From the IMG/VR virus record IMGVR_UViG_3300037583_000003, positions 1 to 64,000 of that record: DNA of 64,000 bases; one strand, written 5' to 3'. Shown here one piece after another: positions 2,685 through 64,000 of the stretch (positions are counted from its first letter, which is position 1; every line of letters begins with the position of its first letter). The notes beneath the pieces are model-generated. The model saw nothing but the letters and a program-made list of their open reading frames with translations, did not search any database and was not told the DNA's origin. Origin of the DNA: a virus. The translations under genes and the position numbers were made by a program.

Positions 2685-3116
2685 TTAGACTGGATTAGTT
2701 AACTCCTTAATCCTAGCGTTAAGTACCTTATAGTAACCAACCATGTGTGTGTACTGCCAATTAAGCAACTCCCAAGATCGGTTACTTAAGTGCACTGGCT
2801 TACCATTAGTTAGGTAATTTTTTAGTTCGAGTTCTAAAACCCCTAGGTCGCTAAGTTCTGCATTTAATTTTTGTACAACAAGGTCAACTGTACTGGTAAC
2901 TTCAGAGTAACCATTGTCAAACTGCTCCTTTGGTGACCATGAAATGTAACCTTCATGCCTTGAGTCGTTAGGCTTACCGCCATCTACGTACTCTACTAGG
3001 TAACCTTCATCATCACCATTTTCATCCTCTGGCAACTCCCATCCCCTGTACTCATTGTAGTCAAGCCTATTCATAGGGTTTGCTTTTACTTCTTTGTGAC
3101 ATTTGAATATCTTCAT
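2685..3116 (-). CDS. Two-domain phage protein: GYLVEY...YISWSPK domain plus crAss001_48-like helical domain
   Basis: N-terminus PMNRLDYNEYRGW...EGYLVEYVDGGKPN...GYISWSPKEQF; C-terminus LL.WQ..HM.GY.KVL.ARI. Confidence 0.6.
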   Translation of the reverse strand: MKIFKCHKEVKANPMNRLDYNEYRGWELPEDENGDDEGYLVEYVDGGKPNDSRHEGYISWSPKEQFDNGYSEVTSTVDLVVQKLNAELSDLGVLELELKNYLTNGKPVHLSNRSWELLNWQYTHMVGYYKVLNARIKELTNPV

Positions 3117-3254: not shown

Positions 3255-3306
3255 GTATACCACCAGCTTATTGAGTCTAGTATATTACATGACCTTACCA
3301 ACCAAT

Positions 3307-3564
3307 TCAACCTGACCCTAGTAGTTTAGCTACACTTGACACCCTGTTACTAGATACTCCGTCTACTGTGACCTTACATCCTTCAGCTAACTGCTCTACC
3401 ATTAGCGGTTGCCTAATAGCTATGTAAACGCAGTAACCCACTAGCCTCGGACTGCATCCCCATGAGTCAGCTGCTGATTGCTTACTAACTCCCAGCTTAC
3501 ACATATCACCATAAGCATTTACAGCTCTCTGTGAGGTAGTTAGTCCGTCTCTACTGGTTTGCAT
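3307..3564 (-). CDS. Stand-alone HTH domain of the ParB-like paralog family
   Basis: LTTSQRAV...AADSWGCSPRLV...QPLMVEQLAEGCKVTV aligns with the C-half of 5783..6496 (VAKDWGCTPRLL...EPGMFEALHAGKNATI). Confidence 0.65.
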   Translation of the reverse strand: MQTSRDGLTTSQRAVNAYGDMCKLGVSKQSAADSWGCSPRLVGYCVYIAIRQPLMVEQLAEGCKVTVDGVSSNRVSSVAKLLGSG

Positions 3565-3886
3565 TCTTTACAGCCCTAACTACAACTCGTACATCATCCA
3601 TTTCAATAACCTTACTATTAGGATTCATAGCCATTGTAGTTGAACCATTAGCTTGTAACTCTTTAGCAACCACTGGGCTATGCTTCCATAAGTACCTAGC
3701 ATTCCTTAGTAGGTTATAACCTAAGCTAGACACCTCTAACGTCTCCTTATTAGTGAGACCAGCTTCTTTCTGGTACATTATCGCATCTAATGCCATCTGT
3801 GATTCGGTTCTCGGTTGGGAACAGCTACCGTATAAGTTTACGAAGAACTCAACAACTACTTTAAATAATATTTTAAGTTTCAACAT
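3551..3886 (-). CDS. HTH-domain protein of the ParB-like paralog family
   Basis: TESQMALDA...GLTNKE...LLRNARYLWKHSPVVAKELQANG shows the same pattern as the other paralogs. Confidence 0.55.
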   Translation of the reverse strand: MLKLKILFKVVVEFFVNLYGSCSQPRTESQMALDAIMYQKEAGLTNKETLEVSSLGYNLLRNARYLWKHSPVVAKELQANGSTTMAMNPNSKVIEMDDVRVVVRAVKNANQ

Positions 3887-3962
3887 CTAAATCTCCTATT
3901 GTTAATTAGTGGGCATTATTGCATAATACTGACACCTAATCAACTACCAAGGAAACCTTTTT

Positions 3963-4535
3963 ATGGGTTACATAACAGAACACAAACGTTTAGCTAAACC
4001 GAAGAACGCTAACACCTTCTATAGGAAGTTTATATCAGAGGACATACTAGATCTACTAGAGAAGTCCTCATCAGTAGAAGCTGACGATGGGTCATTTACC
4101 TTTAACCTACCTCTTGATATAGTACCAGCTAGCCGTCCAAGACTAGGTAGAGGGATTGCCTATACAGCTGAACCTTACAACAGTTTTAAGAAAGTACTAT
4201 CAGAGTTCTTTGCTTCAACACTAGGTGATTACCTATTAACCTCATTCCATGACGTACCACTTAGGCTGGAGCTAGTAGTTGGATACAAGATACCCAAGTC
4301 CTATAGCAAGAAGAAGAGAGCTGACCTACTAGGACAATACAAGATAACTACACCAGATTGCGATAACGTAGTTAAGTGTGTAGAAGATGCACTAGAGCAA
4401 TCGGGTATAATAGGTAATGACTCAACTATAGCTATAGTCACAGTAACTAAGCTATGGGCTGAGGATTACTCATCTACTATTAAAGTAAACAAACTACAAC
4501 GCTTACCTACCACTGGAGACACTTATGACCATTAA
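3963..4535 (+). CDS. rusA: RusA-family Holliday junction resolvase
   Basis: PASRPR...Y, TPDCDNVVKCVEDAL..SGIIGNDS.I....K.W: RusA catalytic Asp/Lys pattern. Confidence 0.85.
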   Translation: MGYITEHKRLAKPKNANTFYRKFISEDILDLLEKSSSVEADDGSFTFNLPLDIVPASRPRLGRGIAYTAEPYNSFKKVLSEFFASTLGDYLLTSFHDVPLRLELVVGYKIPKSYSKKKRADLLGQYKITTPDCDNVVKCVEDALEQSGIIGNDSTIAIVTVTKLWAEDYSSTIKVNKLQRLPTTGDTYDH

Positions 4536-5127
4536 CAGGATCAACTACAGGACAGTCACTAAAAAAGATCTACCTTTCAGTTCTATACTCAAGTTTATAA
4601 ACGATAACTATGTGGTAGCTAGATCTGAGTGGCATAGTACCTGTATGCAACTACGTCTAGGCTCTAACGGTGGATTAGAACTCCTATCCGCTTCTGGTCA
4701 CTACTTGAAGAACTACGCCATACCAAGTGCTGATTGTTTAGCTACTGACTGGTTAGTACTATCAGGTGGTCCAAAAAACCCTCCTAGGGTTAGTATAGCA
4801 GTTAGGTCAAACGAATACCTACCACCTAACAAGTATGGAGGTCATCAAGATCAGATGGCTCAGTACCTAGCTATTATCACTAAAGCTAAGTCTAAAGGTA
4901 TAGAACCTCACATACTTGCAAAGAGAGCCGGTCTTAATGTACCTCTTATGAAGAGACTAGTAAAACTAATCGCACAGTGCCCTGAGATCGTTATGTTCCT
5001 TGAACTAGGTCTTAGTGTAACTATAGAGAGAGCATCAGACCTGGTTAGAACTACTACCAGATCTATCCCTCAACTATGTGCTGTAAACGCTAATAACAAC
5101 GCTTACTACAAGGCTGGTAAGGGTTAG
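4525..5127 (+). CDS. DUF2829/Tad2-like domain fused to a ParB-family HTH domain
   Basis: N-terminus F..IL......VARSEW...M.L...PSADCLATDWLV fits the DUF2829/Tad2 consensus. C-terminus QDQMA...LAKRAGLN..LMKRL..L...CPEIV.FLELGLSVTI fits the local HTH family. Confidence 0.55.
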   Translation: MTINRINYRTVTKKDLPFSSILKFINDNYVVARSEWHSTCMQLRLGSNGGLELLSASGHYLKNYAIPSADCLATDWLVLSGGPKNPPRVSIAVRSNEYLPPNKYGGHQDQMAQYLAIITKAKSKGIEPHILAKRAGLNVPLMKRLVKLIAQCPEIVMFLELGLSVTIERASDLVRTTTRSIPQLCAVNANNNAYYKAGKG

Positions 5128-5690
5128 CTACTCTTCCTATCGCGAGCAGTTACTGAGTTCACGTTGAGTTCATTGTTACTCTTAGCTATACGAAGTAACG
5201 TACCTATCCTATGAGTAGTAACTGTAATACCCTTAGTTACATCTTGGATAGTTACTTCCTTGCCATTGAACAGCATGTCCTCTACCTCTGGTACTATAGC
5301 TAACAACTCCTCTAGTGCTCTTAGGGAGTTTAGCTTAACACCAAACTCTTTACACACGGCTGGTCTGGATAACCTTGAGTTGTTATGCTTAATATACGCC
5401 ATAACTAGTTGTTGCTCTGGTAACACATCCCTTCTTACATTAAGTGCCTCTACAACCATAGCTACATCTTCTAGTGGTGTACTGCTTGGTTGTACCTCTA
5501 TTTTTAACTCTAGACCTAGCTCTATGCAAGCTCTTTGCCTAGCTCGACCATCTACTATCTCACCTCTCCATACCCTAACTGGTAGTTGCTGACCTACTGC
5601 GTCTATACTCCTTACAAGAGCTTCGTATTCTGACGTTGTTAGTTTAGGTTGGTTATTAGCTAACTGGTGTACTTTGTATGTTACTGTCAT
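5124..5690 (-). CDS. ParB/Srx-like N-terminal domain plus HTH protein
   Basis: L..SI...GQ..PV..W.GEIVDGRARQRAC..LG...LNVRRD. Confidence 0.8.
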   Translation of the reverse strand: MTVTYKVHQLANNQPKLTTSEYEALVRSIDAVGQQLPVRVWRGEIVDGRARQRACIELGLELKIEVQPSSTPLEDVAMVVEALNVRRDVLPEQQLVMAYIKHNNSRLSRPAVCKEFGVKLNSLRALEELLAIVPEVEDMLFNGKEVTIQDVTKGITVTTHRIGTLLRIAKSNNELNVNSVTARDRKSS

Positions 5691-5782
5691 TTTGTTGTTC
5701 CTATCTATTGCTGGTTACTGTGGTGTTAGTTTGTAAACAAGCTATGTCATACGTCTACTTGTTTACGATTGGTTGTCATTTA

Positions 5783-6496
5783 CTAGGAGAATATACCTTC
5801 TAGCTCTATACTAGTCCTATAGTTGTACAGTTCTACTAGTTTCACGTACAACTCTGGACTTCCTGTAGAGCCAGCTATGAGCTTAATGAACTCAGCCCTT
5901 AGCGTCACATCATCTATACACTTACTGTAGTCTATCGTGCTTGTGTCCTTCTTTAGCTTCCTGTTACTTACAGCTATCTTCAACAACTTATTTACCATAC
6001 TAGTAGCTACAACAACTCCAGTACGGTAGTCCATTATAGTAGCGTTCTTACCTGCATGAAGTGCTTCAAACATACCAGGCTCTAGTTTCATTAGTGCTTT
6101 GAAGCTAGTTAGTAGTCTAGGAGTACATCCCCAGTCCTTAGCTACAACTGCATTACTATAACCGTGACCTAAACCATGCTTATACGCCACAGCAACCACC
6201 TGAGTAGTCTTAAGGTTACGTCTAGTGTTGTAACTCTTAACTTCAGCTTTAGCCTGTTCTAACGAAAGCTCACTACCATCTGGATTCTTTAGGTTAGTTA
6301 CCTTAAGTTCTCTACCTAGTTCAATACATGACTTCTGTCTACACCTGCCATCTATAATCTCACCTTTCCACAGTAGAGCTGATTGCTTCTGTCCATTCTT
6401 CTCTATGTCCCTAGTCAAGGCTTCTTGCTCTGCTGGTCCAGCTAGAGGTACTAGGTTAGCTAGGTCGTTTATTGCGTATATCTTAGTTTTACTCAT
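5783..6496 (-). CDS. ParB/Srx-like N-terminal domain plus HTH protein
   Basis: ALTRDIEKNGQ...WKGEIIDGRCRQKSC...YNTRRNL. Confidence 0.8.
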   Translation of the reverse strand: MSKTKIYAINDLANLVPLAGPAEQEALTRDIEKNGQKQSALLWKGEIIDGRCRQKSCIELGRELKVTNLKNPDGSELSLEQAKAEVKSYNTRRNLKTTQVVAVAYKHGLGHGYSNAVVAKDWGCTPRLLTSFKALMKLEPGMFEALHAGKNATIMDYRTGVVVATSMVNKLLKIAVSNRKLKKDTSTIDYSKCIDDVTLRAEFIKLIAGSTGSPELYVKLVELYNYRTSIELEGIFS

Positions 6497-6959
6497 TGTT
6501 CTTCTTCTTGTTGGTTAACTGTTTCGCTTTATTGCTAAACTTGTGACTATCTTACACTAGATTACACTAGAATCAACTACTAATTTCACTTTTATTTGTT
6601 ACATTTTTACCTATACCCTAGCTACTGCCTAGTTTACTAGCATTAAGGTTTTTCACATTACATCGGTGTAAACACTATTCGAGCTAGTCGACTTCCAGTT
6701 CAAATAACCTAAAATCTAGAGTTCAAGAATCAGATTCTACGACTTTACTCTGACATAAACCAAAGCCAAATCTCTATCCAGACCTACAACAAAACCAACC
6801 CCTTCTTTTATCCATATATATACAATGTAAACCACACAATTTACAAGGTTATTATTTTAGCTGCTAGACCTACACCTATAGCTAGTTTGTGTGATCTATT
6901 AAAACCAATATGGGAGACCTCTTCTTTTTTAAAATTCTAGTTTTTTTCCATCGCTTCCA

Positions 6960-7113
6960 CTGGCATCCTGTGGTGTGATGGAGGTTACTTCTTCGTCAGT
7001 CGATGATTGTGTCAGCGAGATTCATTCCGTTCCGCTACGCTACACTCCAATCTCTTACGTGCCAGCAATCTTCTTCCTCCTAGAACCACCTCCAACAAAC
7101 CACAGTCAACCAG
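6960..7113. other. Long imperfect inverted repeat (hairpin), candidate terminus/origin/ssDNA promoter element
   Basis: Nested arms CTGG/CCAG, CTGTGGT/ACCACAG, TGGAGGT/ACCTCCA, GATTG/CAATC, GAGATT/AATCTC. The minus-strand apex is GC-GTA-GC. Confidence 0.7.
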
Positions 7114-9063: not shown

Positions 9064-9828
9064 TCATCTAGCTTGCTTAATAGCCTTATCCAGTCTAGCT
9101 TTAGTATTACTTAACAGTAGATCTCTAGACTCATCGTTATTTATCTTATCCACTAACAACTCAAAGTAATTAGCTATTGATACTGACTTACCTCTAGTGG
9201 TATCACAGAACAACTCTTCACCTGCTAGGCTACTAAGCTGACCTAGGTAGTCTTTAGCATACACAACTTCAGAAGACTCTTTAGGTACAAACTTAAGGTT
9301 TCTTTCTAGTACTGATAGTATCGTATACACCTTCTTAGACTTAACCATAACTTCTTTCTCCATATCATATACTTCTATAACCTTCTCTTCAAAGAAGTAA
9401 TCTAGGTACTTAGGTTCTAGTTTAACTATCTTATGTAGTCTAGTTAAAGCTCTACCACTGCAACCATAGTCAGCTACCATTGCTGCATTAGACTTACCAC
9501 TAGCTACTTGTTCCTTATAGAAGCTAGCTAATTGAGACTCCACACTTAGATTCCTTCTAGTATTCAGTGCTCTTACCTTATCCTTGACCTCATCTGGAGT
9601 TAGTGACTCAGATAGGTGATCAATACGGTTTTCAGGTATCTCCATATTAAGAGCTACACAAGCCATTTGTCTACATCTGCCATCTACGATCTTACCTTTC
9701 CATAGAACGATAGGTACTTCAAGACCACCTGATCTTTCAATACTTAGCTTTAGTGTTTCTTGTTCTTGTGGAGCTGGCATTCTAACTATGCTTGCAAATG
9801 GATGAATTTCGTATGTTCTGATTGTCAT
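9064..9828 (-). CDS. ParB/Srx-like N-terminal domain plus HTH protein
   Basis: HPFA...LKLSIERSGG...PIVLWKGKIVDGRCRQMAC...LNTRRNL...YGCSGRAL. Confidence 0.8.
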   Translation of the reverse strand: MTIRTYEIHPFASIVRMPAPQEQETLKLSIERSGGLEVPIVLWKGKIVDGRCRQMACVALNMEIPENRIDHLSESLTPDEVKDKVRALNTRRNLSVESQLASFYKEQVASGKSNAAMVADYGCSGRALTRLHKIVKLEPKYLDYFFEEKVIEVYDMEKEVMVKSKKVYTILSVLERNLKFVPKESSEVVYAKDYLGQLSSLAGEELFCDTTRGKSVSIANYFELLVDKINNDESRDLLLSNTKARLDKAIKQAR

Positions 9829-10452
9829 TTTGGTGTCCTTAATTAGTTGGGGTTAACATTGCAGCTAATATCAGATAATATTCCTCTATTTAAGCTGTGT
9901 TTAACAGGTGAATATTGTAGCATAATTTTGCCGTATTTTGCCGTAAATTAGAGAATATACCTCACCAGCCCACTTAAATGGTCATTTTGCCGCGCGGCAC
10001 AACGAGGTATTTGGAGTGATAAATTTAGACAAAAAAGTACCGAATTTACCACTAAATTTAATCCCCTTAATTAGTTACCTTTATCTTTGGCAAAATTGTG
10101 GAATCATTCTCATTTAGAAAAGGCTATTTGTAACCTTTTTCAAAAAGCTACATGTAACCTTTTTGAGCTACTCTTGGGTACTAATTCAGGATAGGTATAA
10201 AAGTATACATATATAGGTCTCTAAGGAAATAGCCTTTTTGTATTAATACCACAATAAACAGGCAGTTTAAATTCCCAAAATATCCAAAATAAATCGCACT
10301 ATTTTGGTGAATTCATCCAATTTTCCCACTACTAGTAATTTCAACTAGATTCTAACTAGAATCCCATAATTAACCTTTTAACAACTCTATTACTCTAGGA
10401 AAATTAACCTACTCAAAATCCAAACAAAACCTTGACTGCACCAAACAAACAC

Positions 10453-10515
10453 AAAATACCTATAAAATACCTATAAAATACCTATAAAATACCTATAAAA
10501 TACCTATAAATACCT
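10453..10515 (+). repeat. Tandem repeat AAAATACCTAT x5 plus one partial copy
   Basis: Five perfect 11-bp units at 10453-10507, then AAATACCT. Confidence 0.95.
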
Positions 10516-10532
10516 TACAAATGGAGTACTAA

Positions 10533-21819: not shown

Positions 21820-23217
21820 ATGAATTTAGTACCTACACTACCAACGGAATACCAACATTCTCTAGACTTACTGAGCCATCCAATCTTTGCTACAGACAGC
21901 TACAAACTCTCACACTTCTTACAGTACAACCCTAGTGGTGAGTCTATCTATTCTCACTACATTAACCGTACAGAAGATGAGGAGGTATACTTCACTGGCT
22001 TAGACTACATTATCAAGACATACCTAAGTGAGAAGTTTACAACTGACATGTTCTTTTTACTTAACACATGGTGCAACTTCCAGGGAATACCTTGCAATCA
22101 CTCAGGTTTTCTAAAGCTGCTTTATGACTACGACGGTTACCTGCCAGTAACAATCACAGCTGTACCAGAAAACAATTACTACCCTAGCAAGCTACCTTTA
22201 TTCACCGTAACTAACAACGGTGGAGCTGACATGCTATGGTGTGTAGGTATCGTAGAAACCCTACTTATGAAGGTATGGTATCCCTCAGCAGTGGCCACTA
22301 AAGCAGGTAGAGTACACACAAAATTAAGTCACTACTTTCGAAAGAGTTCTCAATGTCCTGAAGCTAACATTAAATACTCTTACCACAACTTTGGTGCAAG
22401 AGGTTCATGTACAGAAGAACAATCACTACTAGGAGGTATGGCTCATCTACACGTATTCTCTGGTACAGACAACTTCAAGTCTGTAATTGCCTACGACCTA
22501 TACTACAAAAGTAAAGAGTTCCCATCCCTATCCATTCCAGCTACTGAACACTCTACAACTTGTTCTGTAGGTAAAGAAAACGAATTCCAATTCGTACTAG
22601 ACCATGTAAACACTTGCATCAGTCTCGACTACCACCTAATGGCAGCTGTTGTAGATACATACGACACAGAAAAACTAGTTAACCTAATTACAGCACCAGA
22701 TTCACCTATCAGAGCAGCCTTAGAAGAGTCTAGATCTAAACTAGTACTAAGACCAGACTCAGGTGATCCAGTAACAGAAGTCACTAACGTATTCCGCATT
22801 CTCAAAAACAACGGTTGTCTACACGTAAACAGTAAGGGTTACTGGACTAGTGATCATTTCTCAGTATTATGGGGAGACGGAGCTACATTAGAAGTAATAG
22901 ATGCCCTAGCTAATAACTGGGTTTACAACCTTCAAGCCTCTATGGATATCCTAGCTTTCGGATCAGGTGGAGACCTAATACAATCTGTATCAAGAGACAC
23001 ACATAAGACAGCAATCAAGGCTTCAGCTATTCTAGTAAACAACAAGTGGGAGGGTATCAGCAAAGAACCAATTGCAGAACCATTTAAAAAGTCTCTAAAG
23101 GGTAGAGTAGTCACCTGCAAGGTTAACAACAAACTAGTAGTTATGGACATGGACTCACCAGAGTACGACCAATCCACTAACATTATGAAAGTAGTGTACA
23201 ACTACGATAAGGATTAG
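21820..23217 (+). CDS. nadV: Nicotinamide phosphoribosyltransferase (NAMPT)
   Basis: TDSYKLSH, VWYPS.VAT, HNFGARG, F.GTD, SIPATEHS, VDTYD, LRPDSGDP, WGDG, AFGSGG, KKSLKG. Confidence 0.93.
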   Translation: MNLVPTLPTEYQHSLDLLSHPIFATDSYKLSHFLQYNPSGESIYSHYINRTEDEEVYFTGLDYIIKTYLSEKFTTDMFFLLNTWCNFQGIPCNHSGFLKLLYDYDGYLPVTITAVPENNYYPSKLPLFTVTNNGGADMLWCVGIVETLLMKVWYPSAVATKAGRVHTKLSHYFRKSSQCPEANIKYSYHNFGARGSCTEEQSLLGGMAHLHVFSGTDNFKSVIAYDLYYKSKEFPSLSIPATEHSTTCSVGKENEFQFVLDHVNTCISLDYHLMAAVVDTYDTEKLVNLITAPDSPIRAALEESRSKLVLRPDSGDPVTEVTNVFRILKNNGCLHVNSKGYWTSDHFSVLWGDGATLEVIDALANNWVYNLQASMDILAFGSGGDLIQSVSRDTHKTAIKASAILVNNKWEGISKEPIAEPFKKSLKGRVVTCKVNNKLVVMDMDSPEYDQSTNIMKVVYNYDKD

Positions 23218-23220
23218 ATC

Positions 23221-24420
23221 ATGTCAAGAAACGTGGTATTTATAGGACGTATGTCAATTCCTCACAAAGGACACATTGACACTATCATTGACGGCTTACA
23301 CCTACTAAGTGAAGGGGGAACTCTACACATAGTACTAGGGAGCAGCTTAGCCTACCGTACACACAAAGACCCATTTGGTTCAGTTCTAAGAAAGATTATG
23401 ATCCGTAGTTCACTAATGGCCGTGGGTATCAACACAACGTACCAAAAGTTATCACCTGATACCTACTTAGTACCTATAAACAATACAAACCTAACACTTA
23501 AGTTCCACCACGTACCAGATCAACACTCCTACGACAGATGGGTATCTAGTATTGAAGATCTTATCAGCCTAGAAGATACAATAATTATTGGTCATGACAA
23601 GGACGGGAAAGGTGATCACCTAACTAAGTTCACCTCATGGGAATTCCATGATACAGGACTAAAACGACCTAGAGCACACGAGGTTTACAATTCCTCTGAC
23701 TCAAGAGCTTCTATGTACCGCAGCAAGCTAGCTAGAGCAGATACACTACCTAGGTTACCAGAGCTGTCTTCCCCTTACCTACCCCAATCAGTAGTGGAGA
23801 ACCTAAACCACTTCTACACAACAGATGAGTGTCAAAGACTAGCAGAGGAGTGGCAACTACTAAAAAACTACCACTCCATCTGGGGTACAGGACCATTCCA
23901 GACTGCTGACATCATCTTGAAGTGTGGACCAGACATAGTGTTCATAGAACGCAGTACACACCCAGGCAAGGGATCTTTAGCACTTCCAGGTGGCTTCATA
24001 GAGGAATCAGACAAAGACTCCCTAGATGCAGGCTTACGAGAGCTTATAGAGGAAACAGAGTGTTCACTTCCAATTGAAACTTTAAGACTATACGCAACTA
24101 GATCTAAACACTTTACTCAAGAAGGTAGATCAGAACGTAACATCCAAACTACAGCTCACTTAATAGAGTTGCCAGACGACAAGTATTGCTTCGTAACAGA
24201 AGAATACCCAGAAGGTACTACTAGCCTAGATAGCGTAACTCTAAGTAGAACTAGTGAGGCAACTACAATCAGTCTAGTCCACGAGAGTCTACTAGAACAA
24301 TACTGCTGCCGTTTCTTTAGTGACCATAAAGAAATAGTACAAACACTGCTTAAAAAGCAAAGGAGTACCTATGAACAATACAATCGAGCTAACAAAACAA
24401 CAAATGAAAGACTTCACTAA
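23221..24420 (+). CDS. Bifunctional NMN adenylyltransferase / Nudix hydrolase (NadM-Nudix, NatV-like)
   Basis: FIGRMSIPHKGH (HxGH), KDPF...R; Nudix box ALPGGFIE...AGLRELIEET; FFSDH. Confidence 0.9.
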   Translation: MSRNVVFIGRMSIPHKGHIDTIIDGLHLLSEGGTLHIVLGSSLAYRTHKDPFGSVLRKIMIRSSLMAVGINTTYQKLSPDTYLVPINNTNLTLKFHHVPDQHSYDRWVSSIEDLISLEDTIIIGHDKDGKGDHLTKFTSWEFHDTGLKRPRAHEVYNSSDSRASMYRSKLARADTLPRLPELSSPYLPQSVVENLNHFYTTDECQRLAEEWQLLKNYHSIWGTGPFQTADIILKCGPDIVFIERSTHPGKGSLALPGGFIEESDKDSLDAGLRELIEETECSLPIETLRLYATRSKHFTQEGRSERNIQTTAHLIELPDDKYCFVTEEYPEGTTSLDSVTLSRTSEATTISLVHESLLEQYCCRFFSDHKEIVQTLLKKQRSTYEQYNRANKTTNERLH

Positions 24421-28228: not shown

Positions 28229-28303
28229 GTGCCTTTAATGTAACGGATAACATACTAGCCTCCTAAGCTTGTTATAGAGGTTCGAGTCCTCTAAGGCACA
28301 CCA
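28229..28303 (+). tRNA. tRNA-Arg(CCU)
   Basis: Acceptor GTGCCTT/AAGGCAC, anticodon loop CTCCTAA, T-arm AGAGG-TTCGAGT-CCTCT, encoded CCA. Confidence 0.9.
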
Positions 28304-28308
28304 CACAC

Positions 28309-28385
28309 GCGCCAGTAACTCAACTGGTCAGAGTATCCGTCTCATAAACGGGAAGTTACTGGTTCAAGTCCAGTCTGGCGCACCA
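28309..28385 (+). tRNA. tRNA with CAU anticodon (Ile2-like or elongator Met)
   Basis: Acceptor GCGCCAG/CTGGCGC, loop CTCATAA, T-arm ACTGG-TTCAAGT-CCAGT, CCA. C4/C5 and the T-arm resemble tRNA-Ile2. Confidence 0.9.
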
Positions 28386-33199: not shown

Positions 33200-33275
33200 G
33201 GCTTCGTAGTTTAAAGGGTAAAACATTCCTCCCCTAAAGGAAAGCTTTCGGTTCGATACCAGAATGAGGCCACCA
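33200..33275 (+). tRNA. Atypical second tRNA-Arg(CCU) (C33, bulged T-stem), possibly a pseudo-tRNA
   Basis: Acceptor GGCTTCG/TGAGGCC, D-arm GTTT/AAAC, anticodon arm TTCCT-CCCCTAA-AGGAA, GGTTCGATACC, encoded CCA. Confidence 0.7.
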
Positions 33276-57663: not shown

Positions 57664-58785
57664 GTGACAAACACTTACTCAACTTTTAACAGTACTAAGA
57701 ACAACCAACTACTAGAGCCAATGTTCTTTGGTCAGAATGTGAACATAGCTAGGTATGATCAACAAAAGTACCCTGTATTTGAGTCTCTTACTGAGAAACA
57801 ACTATCGTTCTTCTGGAGACCAGAGGAGATTGACCTATCTAATGATAGAGCTGAATTCGCTAACCTACCAGAGAATGAGAAGCATATCTTCCTTAGTAAC
57901 CTTAAGTACCAGATACTACTAGATTCTGTTCAAGGTAGATCACCTAATGTAGCATTCCTACCTATTGTATCTATCCCTGAACTAGAGTCTTGGATCGAAA
58001 CTTGGTCATTCTCTGAGGGTATACACTCTAGATCATACACTCACATCATTCGTAACATCGTAGCTGATCCATCTATCATCTTCGACTCAATACTAGATAA
58101 TGACGAGATCATCAAAAGAGCTGAGAGTGTCACTAAGTACTACGACAAACTCATAGCTCTAACAAACCATATGTATGCTAACCACATAGACATTAGCCTA
58201 GATGCTCCATTCCGTAAGGAGATCAAGACTGCACTATATCTAACAATGGTATCAGTTAATGTACTAGAGGCTATTAGATTCTACGTATCATTCGCTTGTA
58301 GTTTTGCCTTTGCTGAACGAGGTGTTATGGAAGGTAATGCTAAAGTAATCAAGCTTATAGCTAAGGATGAAGCAATCCACCTATCAGGTACTCAGCACAT
58401 ACTCAGCATCATGTCTGAAGGTACTGATGATCCTGAGATGGCTGAGATTGCCTTAGAACAGCGTGAAGCTACTTACTTTATATTTATGGATGCAGCTGTA
58501 CAAGAGAAGCAATGGGCTGACTACCTCTTTAAGGATGGCTCTATGATAGGACTTAACAGTGTCATACTGAAGAACTACATAGAGTACATCACTAACGTCA
58601 GACTGAAGGCACTTAAACTAGACCCAATATTCCCTAAGACAGTTAATCCCTTACCTTGGATGAACCATTGGTTAGTTAGTGACAACGTACAGGTTGCACC
58701 ACAAGAGTCTGAAATCACCTCCTATCTAACTGGTCAAATCGACTCTAGTGTCAACGTTAGTGATTTCAGTGATATGTCTATCTAA
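57664..58785 (+). CDS. nrdB: Class Ia ribonucleotide reductase beta subunit
   Basis: [45 protein letters not shown]. Confidence 0.97.
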
Positions 58786-61700
58786 TAGGATAAGTTAATG
58801 CCTCCAATCCAGATGGAGTTATAGCCCTAACTAAGGTCTCGAATGGGTTGTACACCATACCTCCTAGGTTCTTAGTTATCATTGACTGGTCTGTTACATC
58901 CTCTACGTCACCTACAATATACTCTTGGCCAAGTATAGCTATCAGTAGTTTAGCTGGATGACCCTTAGCTAGTTCGGCTATAGCTTTCTGTATCCTTGTA
59001 AAGTACTTAGTGAACATAATGAACCCCATCTGGTTAAACCACTCTACCAACCTACTATTAGGCTTGTTATAGTTAATAAATGCATCCCTAACAGTTTTTA
59101 AAGCCTTGTCCTTACTTATACCTTTCCTAAGCATTAAGTGGTACTGGGCATACCTAGCTACAAAATCCGAGTACTGTGTAGCTGTACTCATCATCTTAAA
59201 TACACTCGTCTTCTCATTCAAATACAACAAGTTAACACCATCCCTAACAATAGTAGGTGCTCCTTTCAGCCTATCATCTAAGATGTCTGTAAACATACTA
59301 GAGTTGTCACCTTCCCCAATATCAAGTTCTTCCACTATAGAAGTGTAGAACCCCCCGTCTATCAAATCCTTAACTGGACTACTCTTAATATCCCCTTCTA
59401 ACGCACTCAATCTCCTAATCTCAACACTACTAGCTAACCCAGCTTTTTCCTTTCCCTTTAACCTTATAACTTCTTTCTGGCTACTAATAAAGTCATTCAA
59501 GTCCCTAACCCCTTGCAACTGCAACTTAGCTATCTCTACTGGTGAATGTCCAGTCATTACTGAATACATCAGGTTTGACACTACATTACCTACAAGAACA
59601 GTTGGTGTTCTTAATATCACATCTACCTTAGCTACTTTAACTATCTCTTTCCACACTTTCTCAGCTACTCTTAGACCATAGTTCATACCTTCAGGCAATA
59701 TCTTACCTCCAGGCACATCACTTAATCCTAACTCTCGGTAACCCATAATACTATGTAACATATCTCGTCTCAGTGTGATCCCGTCTTTAAACTCTAACTT
59801 TATCTCAGTAGGTACTAATCCCCACAACTCATTCAACTCTTTATCATTAGATTTACCATCAAGTGTCACATACTCCATAGAGTTAAGTTTACCCATCATG
59901 TGTTTCTTACTCTTATTCTTATCTGCGTCCTCTTTAACATACTTCAGTAACTCTTTATTGAACGTACTAGACTCCATCTTGTCATAGGTACTCGCGTACA
60001 TACTTCCTATAACATTAGACACTCTCCTATCCATCTTCAGTATCTTCACTTTGTTCTTCTTACTCATATTATAACTATACCCAACAATCCTACCACTATT
60101 GTTCAGCTTAGGTGACAGCAGCTTATCATCAGCAGTTGCTACATAAGTACCTGCTTCCATTTCCCTTACAATCTCTTCTGCCCTAACATTTATAGCCCTA
60201 ATCAACTTATCAGCTTTAACTCGTTCCACTACATTGTCACCATCTAGTCCTACCTTACCAGTAACCGATGTACCTCTTGTATTCTTACCAGTAGTTCTCA
60301 GTGCCACCCTATGGAATGTCTGTGTTACCTGTAAACTAGACACATAGTAACCTAGCTCACCTTCTGAGGCATCCAAACTGTATCTAGGTACTTTGTGTGA
60401 CAACTTGTAACCTAGACGCTTCATACGCTTCTCATCAGCTATTGGTGCTGTAGTTCCCTCTATATTCTGATCTAGTACTGGCTTACTGTAACCCTTAATA
60501 ATCCTCCTCTTATCCGCATGTGTAGTGAATAACTCTTTCTCAGACATCTCTTTATGTGCAACTTGATAAGCTACTACCTGTTCTACTCCTGACTTCTCAT
60601 TCTCCATCAAGTCTAGGAATATGTCCTTATCTGTTTTACTACTCACTTGCAACCCTCTTAGAGTAGCTAACGTATCCACTATATCCACTAACTCCTTAGT
60701 ATTATCAGGATACCTAACCCCTTCAACACTTACTCTATCTACTATATTCTTAGCATTGGTCATCTGAACTATTCCACCATCACCATCCACCATGTACCTA
60801 GCTAAACCATCTATTTGTGCTATGTAGTAGTTATACGATCTCTTATCCGTTTCACCCTTAAGCTTATCCTCTAAATTCTTAATCTCTTGCTTCAACCTGT
60901 TAGGATACTTTATTAGATCAACCACATCATAGTCATAGGCTATAGTACCTAGATCAATATCTACAACTATAGACGTTAAACTATTCTCTTCATCTACGTC
61001 TAACTTCCTTGTAAACCCAGACTTTATCATCTGTATCTTATCTAACCTAGTTAGTGCTCTATGCTGATCTATTTGGTTACTGTAGTACCCTAGTTGCTCT
61101 ATCATATCCTGATAGTCGTCACTCTCTGACATATCCCTTATAGTAGACCATAGTGTACCTTCAGGCTTCAATGACTTAACTCCAGTAGTACTAGATAGAA
61201 ACTGTATTGTTCTTTTAGCCTCCTGACTAACTAACGACTTAGCTATGGTTGCCACTATGTGGTAACCTTGTTTCACTACACCACCTCCCACAAGTTTACT
61301 AGTATCTTGTCGCTTACCCGCTTTATCCTTCATCTTATCTATTCTAGTCGCTAGGTTATCTTCAGCTTTATTGAACTGACCTATAAGCTTACCTAGTATA
61401 CCCTCTCTTTTACGTACTACTTGCTTCTTGTTAGTCTCTGCTAACCTAGCTACTAACCACGCCATCTCTTGGTAGTCACTACCAGTAGGTATCTTCCTAT
61501 TCCATACCACTAACCTATCAAACAACTCCCTCACATACCCTATAAGCTTAGTTACCAGATTAGTCTCATCAGTAGTCACCCTATTAGTCCTACGATCAGC
61601 CAAGGCTTTCATAGTAGCTTTATTAGTCCTTGCAAACGCTATGAACTCATGTAGTCCTACAGCAGTATCTGCGAAGTAGTCCAAGTCAGCTTGAGCTTGC

Positions 61701-62686
61701 ACCAAGTCAGGCTTATCCATGTACTTTGATAGCTCCTCTGGTGTCATACTAAGGAAACTATTCTTTATAGCTACTATTCTCCTTCTTACGCTTGCTATGG
61801 CTGGGTCTCTACTGTTAAGTGCATACGCTGTTACTACATGGTACAACTCATGTGTATAAGCTTCTAGTGCTGACCTATTAGTATCTCTCGGTCCTAAACC
61901 AACATACACATCTGCTTTGTTACCGTCAAACTTAACCATACCACCATTCCTGGTTGTCCTACCTAGATGTACAGTTACATCAGGCATTAAGCTAACTAGA
62001 GGTGCTACTATACCTGATAGGTTATCTAGCAGTGTAGCCTTATGCCACTCACCAGTATCTGTTGGATCTAACTTATCTACTTCCTCAGCTAACTCCATGA
62101 TCTTATCAGGGTTACTTATCAAGTCTCTAGCTACTACCTCGTACTCCTCGTAACCCCTATTCAGAAAGTCCTTATCAGACCCTAGGTTATCTAACTCTTC
62201 ACTCGTTACTTGGAAGTCTACACCATCTAGCTGTATAAACGCTTTACCTCTTAACTTTCTAGTGACAGTCCTACCTGTAGTACTACGGGTAAACCTAACA
62301 CTGTAACCATCATCCACTTTAACTATGTCCTCAACTACTACACTAACCCCGTCAACAGTAGGACTATTAGCATTTATCATATCTTTAGTTGCTGCAACTA
62401 CACTCCCTAACTTACTCTCAGGAGACCTACCCTCATCTACACCCCCTTCATCCACTTTAGTTTCTTTAACTTCCTTAGCTTTAACTATGGGTTTAACGTC
62501 TACCATACCTTCTTTAGGTGGTTGCAGTTGTCTTAGATTATATGCAAACTTATCTACGGTATCCTTTACTTCCTTAGTGGTAGTTCCCTTCTTACCCTTA
62601 ACTAACGCACCTAGCTTACCTTTTACAACAGGAGAACTTAAGAACCCCTCCATTTCTTTTTTGAACACATCTACATTACAGCTCAT
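58778..62686 (-). CDS. Large virion protein resembling the C-terminal domain of N4 vRNAP, with a HExxH zincin-like motif
   Basis: AYTHELYH...HEFIAF; C-terminal QYSDFVAR...FINY...MGFIMF.KY..RI resembles, from memory, N4-type vRNAP C-termini. The ATG at 62686 follows GGAG. Confidence 0.7.
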
Positions 62687-64000
62687 AAACAATCTCCTGC
62701 CTTATCCAATTTCTTTTTCAGTACACTAGAGTCAAATAACTTCCTTATAGCTATACCGTCTTCTTTACTACCAAGCTTAACCAAGCTTTCTACCAGTGCA
62801 TTATACTCTTTCTTTACAGCTTTCCTATTACGATCTCTTATAACGTCAGGAGTAACCTCGTAGGCAGACCCTATCGGACCTACAAACTGACCAGCCCTAG
62901 CGGTAGTACTAAATAGCTCCTTACGTCTTGCTCTAACGTCATCAACAAATACCTCAAGTTTACCTACAGCTTCTTGCAGTTTCTCACTACCACTTAGTTC
63001 ATAAGCTTTCGTTCCCATGTCTAGTAGTGCTTCTGCTGGTGTGTACTGTCTAACATCCTCATACCAATTCTTATTCAGTATGTTTATCTCTCCCATCTGA
63101 CCTATACCTAGTACTGCTGCATCATGTACAGACAGGAATCCCTTATCACTATCCACCAACGACTGTCCCATAGTATTACCGTCACTGGTCTGTACAGGTA
63201 GAACTAACGCAGATGCTCCAGGAGATCTAAACCCTCTAGCTAATAGTGATGTAGTTAGGAACTCTCTATCACCAGTTAGCTCTATCTTAGAGGTTTCTGT
63301 GTGTACATCTTTATCTAACGCTCTCTGGTACAGAAACAGTTTATCCTTAGCTGACGTACTAGATGCTGTATCTATTGCAGGAGCTAACCCACTCTCTATT
63401 AACTTCTTAACTATACCATTCTTATCAGAACTTGTTACTTTCAATCCAATCTTGTCTACCTCCTTATCATACTCCTTCTTGAACACAGCAAATACTTGCT
63501 CTGACAACTCAGACATAGCCTTGTTCATTATCAGGTAGTCTCCAAATACCTCATCAAGTGTCTCTATAAACTCTACCTTATACTTAGCTTCTAGGTAGTT
63601 AGTTAGAACTGCATCAAGCTCACTCAAGCTATCCAAGGACTTCTCAGTTAACTCAGCTCTAGCTTCTACTATCCAGTTAGTGTCCTCCTGCTGTGTGCTA
63701 CCACCACCAGCTACCTCTCTTAGTTGCTTGTCAGTTACAACGTAATTACCATCTCTACCTACTTCAAGCAATCCAGCAACCATAACTTCCTTCTCTCCAG
63801 ATATTACATCATCTACAATCTTGAACAATCCAGCACCATAGTTGAATATCATTACAGGAGTCTTCATTATATTACGTAAACCCTTAGATACTGTGAGATC
63901 CGAGGTTAGTCCTAATCTATCCCAAGCTACATCTATCGGTGACACATCAACCTCTATTGATTTTTCAGGGTCATTAGGATTTACTGTAGACTTCATACCA
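62683..64000 (-). CDS. Virion-encapsidated RNA polymerase, catalytic C-terminal part (5' end outside the window)
   Basis: RNIMKTPVMIFNYGAG (motif B), QTSDG, SVHDA (motif C); frame open to the window edge. Confidence 0.88.
   Translation of the reverse strand, partial: GMKSTVNPNDPEKSIEVDVSPIDVAWDRLGLTSDLTVSKGLRNIMKTPVMIFNYGAGLFKIVDDVISGEKEVMVAGLLEVGRDGNYVVTDKQLREVAGGGSTQQEDTNWIVEARAELTEKSLDSLSELDAVLTNYLEAKYKVEFIETLDEVFGDYLIMNKAMSELSEQVFAVFKKEYDKEVDKIGLKVTSSDKNGIVKKLIESGLAPAIDTASSTSAKDKLFLYQRALDKDVHTETSKIELTGDREFLTTSLLARGFRSPGASALVLPVQTSDGNTMGQSLVDSDKGFLSVHDAAVLGIGQMGEINILNKNWYEDVRQYTPAEALLDMGTKAYELSGSEKLQEAVGKLEVFVDDVRARRKELFSTTARAGQFVGPIGSAYEVTPDVIRDRNRKAVKKEYNALVESLVKLGSKEDGIAIRKLFDSSVLKKKLDKAGDCL

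Follow-up and report, generated by a model that had tools for sequence, protein, structure and literature searches.

Introduction

To our knowledge, all known Tad2 proteins are stand-alone sponges for bacterial immune signals. The present study characterised an open reading frame (ORF) in which a domain of this family appears joined to a DNA-binding-type module. It lies in the IMG/VR virus record IMGVR_UViG_3300037583_000003, of which positions 1 to 64,000 were analysed (hereafter the window; all coordinates are those of this 64,000-nucleotide stretch). The ORF occupies 4525-5127 on the plus strand and encodes a protein of 200 amino acids (aa), comprising a minimal and divergent Tad2-like (DUF2829) domain, a linker, and a helical module related to ParB-like proteins encoded nearby. 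On the sequence evidence this architecture is real and unusual; its reading as a sensor is hypothetical, with part of the sequence evidence telling against it.

In Tad2 of phage SPO1, the pocket for glycocyclic ADP-ribose (gcADPR) is formed by W25, N26, W73, S76, T78, and D79 (SPO1 Tad2 paper). The corresponding pocket of HgmTad2 comprises W21, N22, G23, W87, L88, S90, T92, and D93, and the mutants W21A/N22A and S90A/T92A/D93A lose gcADPR binding (HgmTad2 paper). HgmTad2 and SptTad2 also have 35-41 residues inserted between beta2 and beta5, and this stretch binds cyclic dinucleotides. The pockets sit at protomer interfaces, and all solved relatives are homotetramers. Ligands across the family include gcADPR, histidine-ADP-ribose (His-ADPR), N7-cyclic ADP-ribose (N7-cADPR), cyclic CMP and cyclic UMP (cCMP/cUMP), and cyclic dinucleotides, which are held in two different interface pockets (10.1101/2025.08.24.671296).

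Two further groups of proteins provide points of reference. ParB, KorB, and VirB are nucleotide-switched through their N-terminal domains (PMC11790492, PMC10770331, PMC12704722), while anti-CRISPRs such as AcrIIA1 and AcrIIA15 provide an established design in which a single chain carries a helix-turn-helix (HTH) and an anti-defence domain (PMC10901769, PMC9410906). A Tad2-type fold coupled to a DNA-binding domain, in the very place of the nucleotide switch of ParB-family proteins, would offer a test case for whether phages sense immune messengers as opposed to only absorbing them, or use the fold as a plain oligomerisation module.

Domain layout of the protein

The ORF and the parts of its product are as follows.

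4525-5127, plus strand: the ORF, 200 aa plus stop, with the stop codon TAG at 5125-5127
4555-4764, plus strand: Tad2-like (DUF2829) domain, minimal and divergent, residues 11-80 (from PF11195, hhalign, our own hidden Markov model (HMM), and the structural model)
4765-4839, plus strand: linker, residues 81-105 (5 Pro in 25 residues; predicted disordered)
4840-5094, plus strand: helical DNA-binding-type module, residues 106-190 (from paralogy to local ParB-like proteins)

This arrangement agrees with the original prediction, made from the sequence alone, which had proposed a DUF2829-like domain at residues of about 16-80, a proline-rich linker, and a ParB-type HTH of local kind. The first is borne out by PF11195, hhalign, shuffled controls, and structure matches, with limits closer to residues 11-80, and the third by paralogy to the neighbouring ParB-like genes. 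For the linker, the proline content is accompanied by a predicted local distance difference test (pLDDT) value below 50 at residues 85-105 in both AlphaFold models that were computed. The order of the parts is that of the ParB-like paralogues, namely N-terminal domain, linker, HTH, and C-terminal helix, so that the Tad2-like domain in effect replaces the domain of ParB that binds cytidine triphosphate (CTP).

Homology of the N-terminal domain to the Tad2-like family

In Pfam, residues 18-78 matched PF11195 over profile positions 3-72/73 with 15.2 bits (E 0.032). A six-frame scan of the 93-kb genome with this profile returned the same domain as its sole match (E 0.0018), and thus no second Tad2-like gene in the phage. 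Once corrected for all window proteins and all Pfam families, the match has an expectation above 1 and is not significant; four further tests of homology were therefore performed, comprising two tblastn searches, an hhalign comparison, and an HMM calibrated on shuffled sequences.

When residues 1-95 were searched by tblastn against 2.3 Gb of phage DNA, five weak matches were obtained, of which two cover the domain. These two, gp009 of Serratia phage Parlo and gp19 of Vibrio phage 1.127.O (44 and 92 bits, respectively, against PF11195), were both aligned exactly over their own Tad2-like domains. The top match in 7.3 Gb of plasmid DNA was a DUF2829 protein of Klebsiella oxytoca (81 bits), with E 0.04 in the search and 2e-8 in the pairwise comparison. 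The hhalign comparison with a family alignment that excluded the ORF itself gave a probability of 92.9% (E 3.6e-7) over residues 13-80. Finally, an HMM was built from 84 Tad2-like domains (80 IMG/VR loci and four Parlo-like proteins). The N-terminal domain obtained 19.0 bits with this HMM, a score that none of 50,000 composition-preserving shuffles reached (highest 12.3); across the 408 open frames of the window, the HMM ranked the ORF first with 16.0 and the runner-up at 3.4.

The core motifs of the family are present in order and with the right spacing, as F18, V31-A32-R33, W36, M41, D70, L72-A73, and D75-W76. All of these except M41 align to columns that are 90-100% conserved among 73 family members, although the sample was drawn with motif patterns and conservation, including that of the pocket columns, is inflated accordingly. 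Taken together, the sequence comparisons make it very probable that the N-terminal domain is homologous to the Tad2-like family.

Modelled fold of the N-terminal domain

AlphaFold gave a poor model from the single sequence (pLDDT 42), which nevertheless contained a helix at residues 18-28 and strands at 40-45, 51-54, and 76-80. A good model was obtained with an alignment of the ORF and 77 family members as guide; mixed alignments of Tad2 members and HTH paralogues, which placed the paralogues on the wrong domain, were excluded from folding. The alignment-guided model reached a pLDDT above 90 for residues 11-80 and comprises a strand at 11-16, a helix at 18-26, strands at 30-33, 42-45, and 51-54, a helix at 68-71, and a strand at 76-79.

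Comparison with known structures, which the original prediction had named as a check, matched this alignment-guided model to the Tad2 fold. In Foldseek, the first 24 places were all taken by Tad2 structures, the root-mean-square deviation (rmsd) to SPO1 Tad2 being about 2 A. An exhaustive VIA-align comparison ranked HgmTad2 (8KBI; Z 9.6, rmsd 1.9 A, 66 residues) and ModTad2 (9EIB; Z 9.5) highest, the rmsd to the two being 1.8-1.9 A over 65-66 residues, whereas the next, unrelated chain reached a Z of 5.5. The model indicates that the sequence of the N-terminal domain is compatible with a Tad2 fold, and does not establish that the fold is actually adopted.

Pocket residues and possible ligands

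Pocket positions were compared with those of HgmTad2, the numbering of which was tied to its sequence through the PDB alignment. The original prediction, which had cast the domain as a receptor of immune signals, fares unevenly here, with about half of the pocket residues lost. W36 and D70 are retained, with a conservative change of the second tryptophan to Y64, an alignment uncertain by one residue. The pocket asparagine, glycine, serine, and threonine have become H37, S38, P67, and A69, respectively, which speaks against a ligand role; the change to A69 weighs in the same direction, since it is also present within the HgmTad2 triple mutant that does not bind. The ORF thus lacks the full gcADPR pocket (W, N, (G), W, S, T, D). 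The spacing between W36 and Y64 is 27 residues, against 47 in SPO1 Tad2 and 65 in HgmTad2 (W21-W87).

The insertion which binds cyclic dinucleotides is likewise absent, the model showing a tight hairpin (42-45/51-54), and helix alpha2, part of the dimer interface in SPO1 Tad2, is missing from the model. With half of the gcADPR pocket changed and the dinucleotide insertion lacking, a classic sponge activity against gcADPR or cyclic dinucleotides appears unlikely from the sequence. Given the versatility of the family in its choice of ligands, the changed pocket lowers the prospects of a ligand without excluding one, and the sensing of host alarm molecules through this domain is rather doubtful.

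The C-terminal module and its ParB-like paralogues

Five helices were modelled in the C-terminal module (residues 107-124, 128-134, 139-151, 154-160, and 167-190), with a pLDDT above 90 for residues 110-150, though the guiding alignment does not cover the module. Five genes on the opposite strand of the window appear to share it.

5124-5690, minus strand: ParB-like paralogue of 188 aa, with a ParB N-terminal domain and the shared HTH module; matches ParB-like PHROGs; convergent with the ORF
5783-6496, minus strand: ParB-like paralogue of 237 aa, with the shared HTH module; matches ParB-like PHROGs; alignment and HMM
9064-9828, minus strand: ParB-like paralogue of 254 aa; phrog_4715, ParB-like (E 5.7e-6)
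3307-3564, minus strand: paralogue of 85 aa consisting of the HTH module only; found by alignments, and raises the score of the ORF when added to the HMM
3551-3886, minus strand: paralogue of 111 aa consisting of the HTH module only; alignments and HMM of the paralogues

The three larger proteins are solidly interrelated (E 2e-25 between the 188-aa and 254-aa proteins) and match ParB-like PHROGs across both the N-terminal domain and the HTH. They alone carry the DGR.RQ motif, the ORF having no CTPase N-terminal domain of ParB with its GxxR-type box. In BLASTP, the module of the ORF was related to the 188-aa paralogue (E 1e-4, 29% identity over 62 residues), while matches of the ORF to the 237-aa and 254-aa paralogues were not significant. 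With an HMM of the three ParB-like paralogues the module scored 14.2 bits, and with all five paralogues in the HMM it scored 18.6 bits; the best of 20,000 shuffles reached 9.3 and 11.6, respectively.

Structural and language-model comparisons pointed to the same class less specifically. In VIA-align, the module was matched to KorB (8QA8, Z 4.0 over 77 residues; 1R71, 3.4), pNOB8 ParB (5K5D, 3.4), and Spo0J (1VZ0, 3.3), with Mu transposase and TrpR-like HTH domains scoring equally. The nearest clusters in the ESM Atlas were HTH_ParB/KorB proteins at 0.93, a value to be read as a lead only. NCBIfam contained no match for the module or for the rest of the ORF, and tblastn of the module against phages gave none even at E 10. 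On balance, the module is likely to be an HTH of the ParB/KorB type.

Start codon and operon

The ORF follows a resolvase gene, with which it forms a two-gene unit on the plus strand.

3963-4535, plus strand: RusA-like Holliday junction resolvase, 190 aa (Pfam RusA 61 bits, E 2.2e-16; phrog_140, E 5e-26)
4515-4518, plus strand: Shine-Dalgarno core GGAG, with a 6-nucleotide (nt) spacer to the ATG at 4525

The ATG at 4525 lies within the last codons of the RusA gene, the final 11 nt of which are overlapped by the ORF, and this overlap with the RusA stop region is the arrangement of translationally coupled genes. A Shine-Dalgarno core of such a kind precedes 28 of the 40 long ORFs in the window, and none was found upstream of the internal start candidates M41 and V30. 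The public collection holds only a form of 160 aa starting at M41 (P0001). That call would halve the N-terminal domain, with the loss of helix alpha1, strand beta1, and Trp36, and is therefore probably a mis-called start that leaves the protein too short; the public gene call should probably be corrected from 160 to 200 aa.

At the other end, the stop codon TAG (5125-5127) overlaps the TAA (5124-5126, minus strand) of the convergent 188-aa ParB-like gene. Since no terminator-like hairpin was found in 3300-7000 and the stops overlap, the convergent transcripts of the two genes should overlap as well. The two-gene unit adjoins a divergent intergenic region (3887-3962) containing sigma-70-like hexamers, and a search for repeats returned no convincing palindrome near the operon.

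Further along the window, the non-coding DNA that separates the third ParB-like gene from the following plus-strand cluster contains five tandem 11-nt units (AAAATACCTAT) at 10442-10518. These resemble iterons, and the array is a candidate site for binding by one of the HTH paralogues.

Genome context and rarity of the architecture

The genome record spans 93 kb, with an estimated completeness of 93%. Its products include NAMPT and an NMNAT/Nudix protein, a primase, RIIA, and a virion RNA polymerase. Among known phages, it is closest to the Alteromonas podophages AD45-P1 to P4 (~100 kb), with 47% identity in the primase. This gene set and kinship place it, as a distant member, among the marine N4-like phages. 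At 58778-63996 on the minus strand, the N4-type virion RNA polymerase (phrog_2206) is divided among two or more successive ORFs, of 1304 and 437 aa, and the 437-aa ORF extends beyond the window. Two tRNA-Arg(CCU) genes and one tRNA(CAU) gene lie at 28229-28385 and 33200-33275 (plus strand). At 21820-24420 (plus strand), a nicotinamide phosphoribosyltransferase (phrog_448, E 4.6e-97) adjoins a cytidylyltransferase/Nudix protein (phrog_395, phrog_1198), the two forming a pair for the reconstitution of nicotinamide adenine dinucleotide (NAD). Such pairs are used by phages against NAD-depleting defences.

Of 80 viral Tad2-like genes sampled, 77 stop with the domain and only three continue beyond it. 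The usual partner in this sample is an N-terminal domain of the phrog_872 type, and none of the N-terminal extensions read looked DNA-binding; the architecture of the ORF is therefore unusual. The phrog_872 domain, fused to a canonical Tad2-like domain in many other phages (e.g. P0024 and many of the loci L010-L056), also occurs in this genome, in an ORF of 143 aa at 2685-3116 on the minus strand. There it forms the N-terminal part (E 4.9e-26, profile positions 13-90), followed by a crAss001_48-like C-terminal domain (Pfam, 30.6 bits). The usual partner of Tad2 and the Tad2-like fold hence reside here in separate genes, 1.4 kb apart.

Relatives of the whole protein were not found. A word-index search of 5.8 billion clusters returned only the protein itself, and a full HMMER search of 1.84 billion cluster representatives gave no whole-protein relative beyond it. 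The sole non-self match in the latter (P0002, 1693 aa) was rejected as spurious, being a translated tandem DNA repeat whose score is the sum of 15 short stretches; these fall on residues 110-145, and repeats of this kind can inflate summed scores. Megablast of the locus against phages yielded nothing, AD45-P1 contains no relative of the ORF, and searches for related loci with the protein, a query-first alignment, and the 237-aa paralogue gave no confirmed relatives; an alignment of the paralogues was too divergent to serve as a query. No description of a Tad2-HTH fusion was found in the literature searched.

Discussion

The analyses presented above show both domains and what they are related to, as well as the linker and the start codon. 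As to what the protein does, the explanation given a little better than even weight, from the sequence, is that it acts as a DNA-binding regulator or DNA organiser, in which the Tad2-like domain supplies oligomerisation and possibly a ligand site. The C-terminal half would be an HTH module of ParB/KorB type copied from the phage's own ParB-like gene family, and the N-terminal CTP-binding ParB domain of the paralogues would here have been swapped for a stripped Tad2-like domain on a disordered linker. The HTH would bind specific phage or host DNA, and the Tad2-like domain would provide oligomerisation and perhaps a site for a small molecule, which may be another nucleotide-derived ligand.

A number of results weigh against this explanation. 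The PF11195 score lies below the gathering cut-off of 25 bits (15.2, or 15.9 in the genome scan), and PHROGs, the PDB sequence search, and the ESM Atlas returned no usable match for the N-terminal domain. The Tad2 fold of the model is partly circular, as the guiding alignment imposes the contacts of the family, and the loss of alpha2 in the model may also abolish the Tad2-type dimer. For the module, hhalign against the paralogue profile gave a probability of only 8.9%, Pfam contained no match to residues 101-200 at E up to 10 except a chance-level Tnp_DNA_bind, and sequence and profile searches of the PDB returned none; the Z of about 4 of the modelled module is within the range of common helical arrangements. 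Around the operon, the promoter scan did not rise above shuffled sequences, and no operator was identified, with only a 5-bp AT-rich inverted repeat present upstream.

The original prediction had gone further, proposing a regulator that responds to immune signals. In a model of this kind, the messenger could be a cyclic dinucleotide, gcADPR, His-ADPR, N7-cADPR, or cCMP/cUMP, and its engagement of the N-terminal domains would alter binding of the HTH to DNA as CTP does through the N-terminal domain of ParB and KorB. Several observations fit such a sensor. The Tad2-like domain stands at the exact position of the nucleotide-switch domain of the paralogues, Tad2 pockets form at protomer interfaces in a family whose choice of ligand is very versatile, and W36, Y64, and D70 are kept or conservatively changed. 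The NAD-reconstitution genes of the phage imply pressure from NAD-depleting, TIR-type defences, and KorB and VirB are precedents for ParB-type HTH regulators switched by nucleotides (PMC11790492, PMC10770331). However, the N, G, S, and T of the pocket are replaced, HgmTad2 mutants that include the N, S, and T positions (W21A/N22A and S90A/T92A/D93A) lose gcADPR binding, neither the dinucleotide-binding insertion nor alpha2 is present, no operator or promoter above shuffles was found near the operon, and no such regulator was found described in the literature searched. Overall, a regulator responding to these immune messengers is rather unlikely. It is unlikely, too, that the exchange of the CTP switch domain for a Tad2-like one has produced a protein in which a host immune ligand, or another ligand derived from ADP-ribose or a nucleotide, drives oligomerisation and switches DNA binding. 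If true, a lytic phage could read a host alarm signal and re-programme its own genes.

A bifunctional protein of the AcrIIA1/AcrIIA15 type would instead combine an N-terminal sponge for a Thoeris, Pycsar, or CBASS signal with ligand-independent, Aca-like autorepression by the HTH of a strong early promoter of the operon. HTH-fused anti-CRISPRs are the nearest published design (PMC10901769, PMC9410906), the ORF is part of a unit of only two genes, preceded by a divergent intergenic region in which sigma-70-like hexamers occur, and the phage has no other Tad2-like gene, whereas AD45-P1 has a standalone one. The pocket losses tell against this arrangement just as they do against a sensor; moreover, the operon partner is a RusA resolvase and not an anti-defence gene, the repeat search returned no palindromic operator, and promoter-like sites occur no more often than in shuffles. 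Such a sponge with autorepression is likewise unlikely.

It is very improbable that the resemblance to Tad2 arose by chance or convergence, leaving the ORF merely an HTH paralogue with an unrelated N-terminal extension. The sub-threshold Pfam score, its corrected expectation, the empty PHROGs, PDB sequence, and ESM Atlas searches, and the fact that the single-sequence model is of low confidence while the good one is alignment-guided all speak for this reading. Against it stand the 50,000 shuffles that never reached the real score, the hhalign probability, the most conserved residues of the family in order and at the right spacing, and the best weak matches in three separate databases, which are PF11195 proteins aligned motif to motif. 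Translation from M41, yielding a 160-aa HTH protein behind a Tad2-like stretch that would be a decaying remnant and not be produced as a domain, is the least credible of the alternatives, since it has the 160-aa form in the public collection in its favour but is opposed by the GGAG 6 nt before the ATG at 4525, the lack of a Shine-Dalgarno core at M41 or V30, the overlap of that ATG with the RusA stop region, and an open frame in which Tad2-like homology runs from residue 3-13 onwards.

Even if the N-terminal domain is purely structural, the correction of the public gene call to 200 aa still stands, and the case would also show that a PF11195-like domain is not by itself a sign of anti-Thoeris activity.

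Comparison with known systems

The named comparison set of Tad2 sponges comprises SPO1 gp34.65 (8SME/8SMF/8SMG), HgmTad2/AcrIIA7 (8KBI), ModTad2 (9EIB, 8V3E), and SptTad2 (8WJD). The N-terminal domain of the ORF, as modelled, has in common with them alpha1, the antiparallel sheet, and a short alpha3, together with the motifs F..(A)L, VAR..W, and D.LA.DW. Unlike these sponges, the ORF falls below the Pfam cut-off, lacks alpha2 and the dinucleotide insertion, has an altered pocket, and continues into an HTH after the domain. A standalone member of the family is found in Alteromonas phage AD45-P1, as a DUF2829 gene of 90 aa (78.5 bits; NC_021532.1, 50482-50754) in a different context; its pocket is also non-canonical (WDD; W-S-P-K-Q-V-D).

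The closest sequences found for the N-terminal domain are the gp009-like proteins of Serratia phage Parlo (P0003-P0006, 239-245 aa), with 30% identity and a pairwise E of 1e-7; an HTH gene lies two genes downstream of gp009 (L002:1057-1773). These proteins resemble the ORF in having a tyrosine at the second aromatic position, no WNG, the motif ATDW, a strand before alpha1, and a multi-domain organisation. They differ from it in that their Tad2-like domain is C-terminal and passes the Pfam cut-off (44 bits), and in having no ParB-type HTH. The N-terminal region of Parlo gp009, of 150 residues, gave a TrpR-like PDB match that was non-significant (E 0.81). Parlo gp009 may represent another divergent Tad2-like domain linked to a regulator.

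To the ParB/KorB-type HTH proteins (PF17762, PF08535; KorB 1R71/8QA8, Spo0J 1VZ0), the likeness of the ORF is weak and comes from structural and language-model comparisons; in contrast to them, the ParB CTPase domain is replaced and Pfam HTH_ParB is not matched, and neither a ParA partner nor a parS site was identified. Lastly, AcrIIA1 and AcrIIA15 carry an HTH of a different class, placed N-terminally where that of the ORF is C-terminal, and the anti-defence activity of the ORF is doubtful. What they and the Aca repressors share with it is an HTH joined to a domain of an anti-defence family in one polypeptide.

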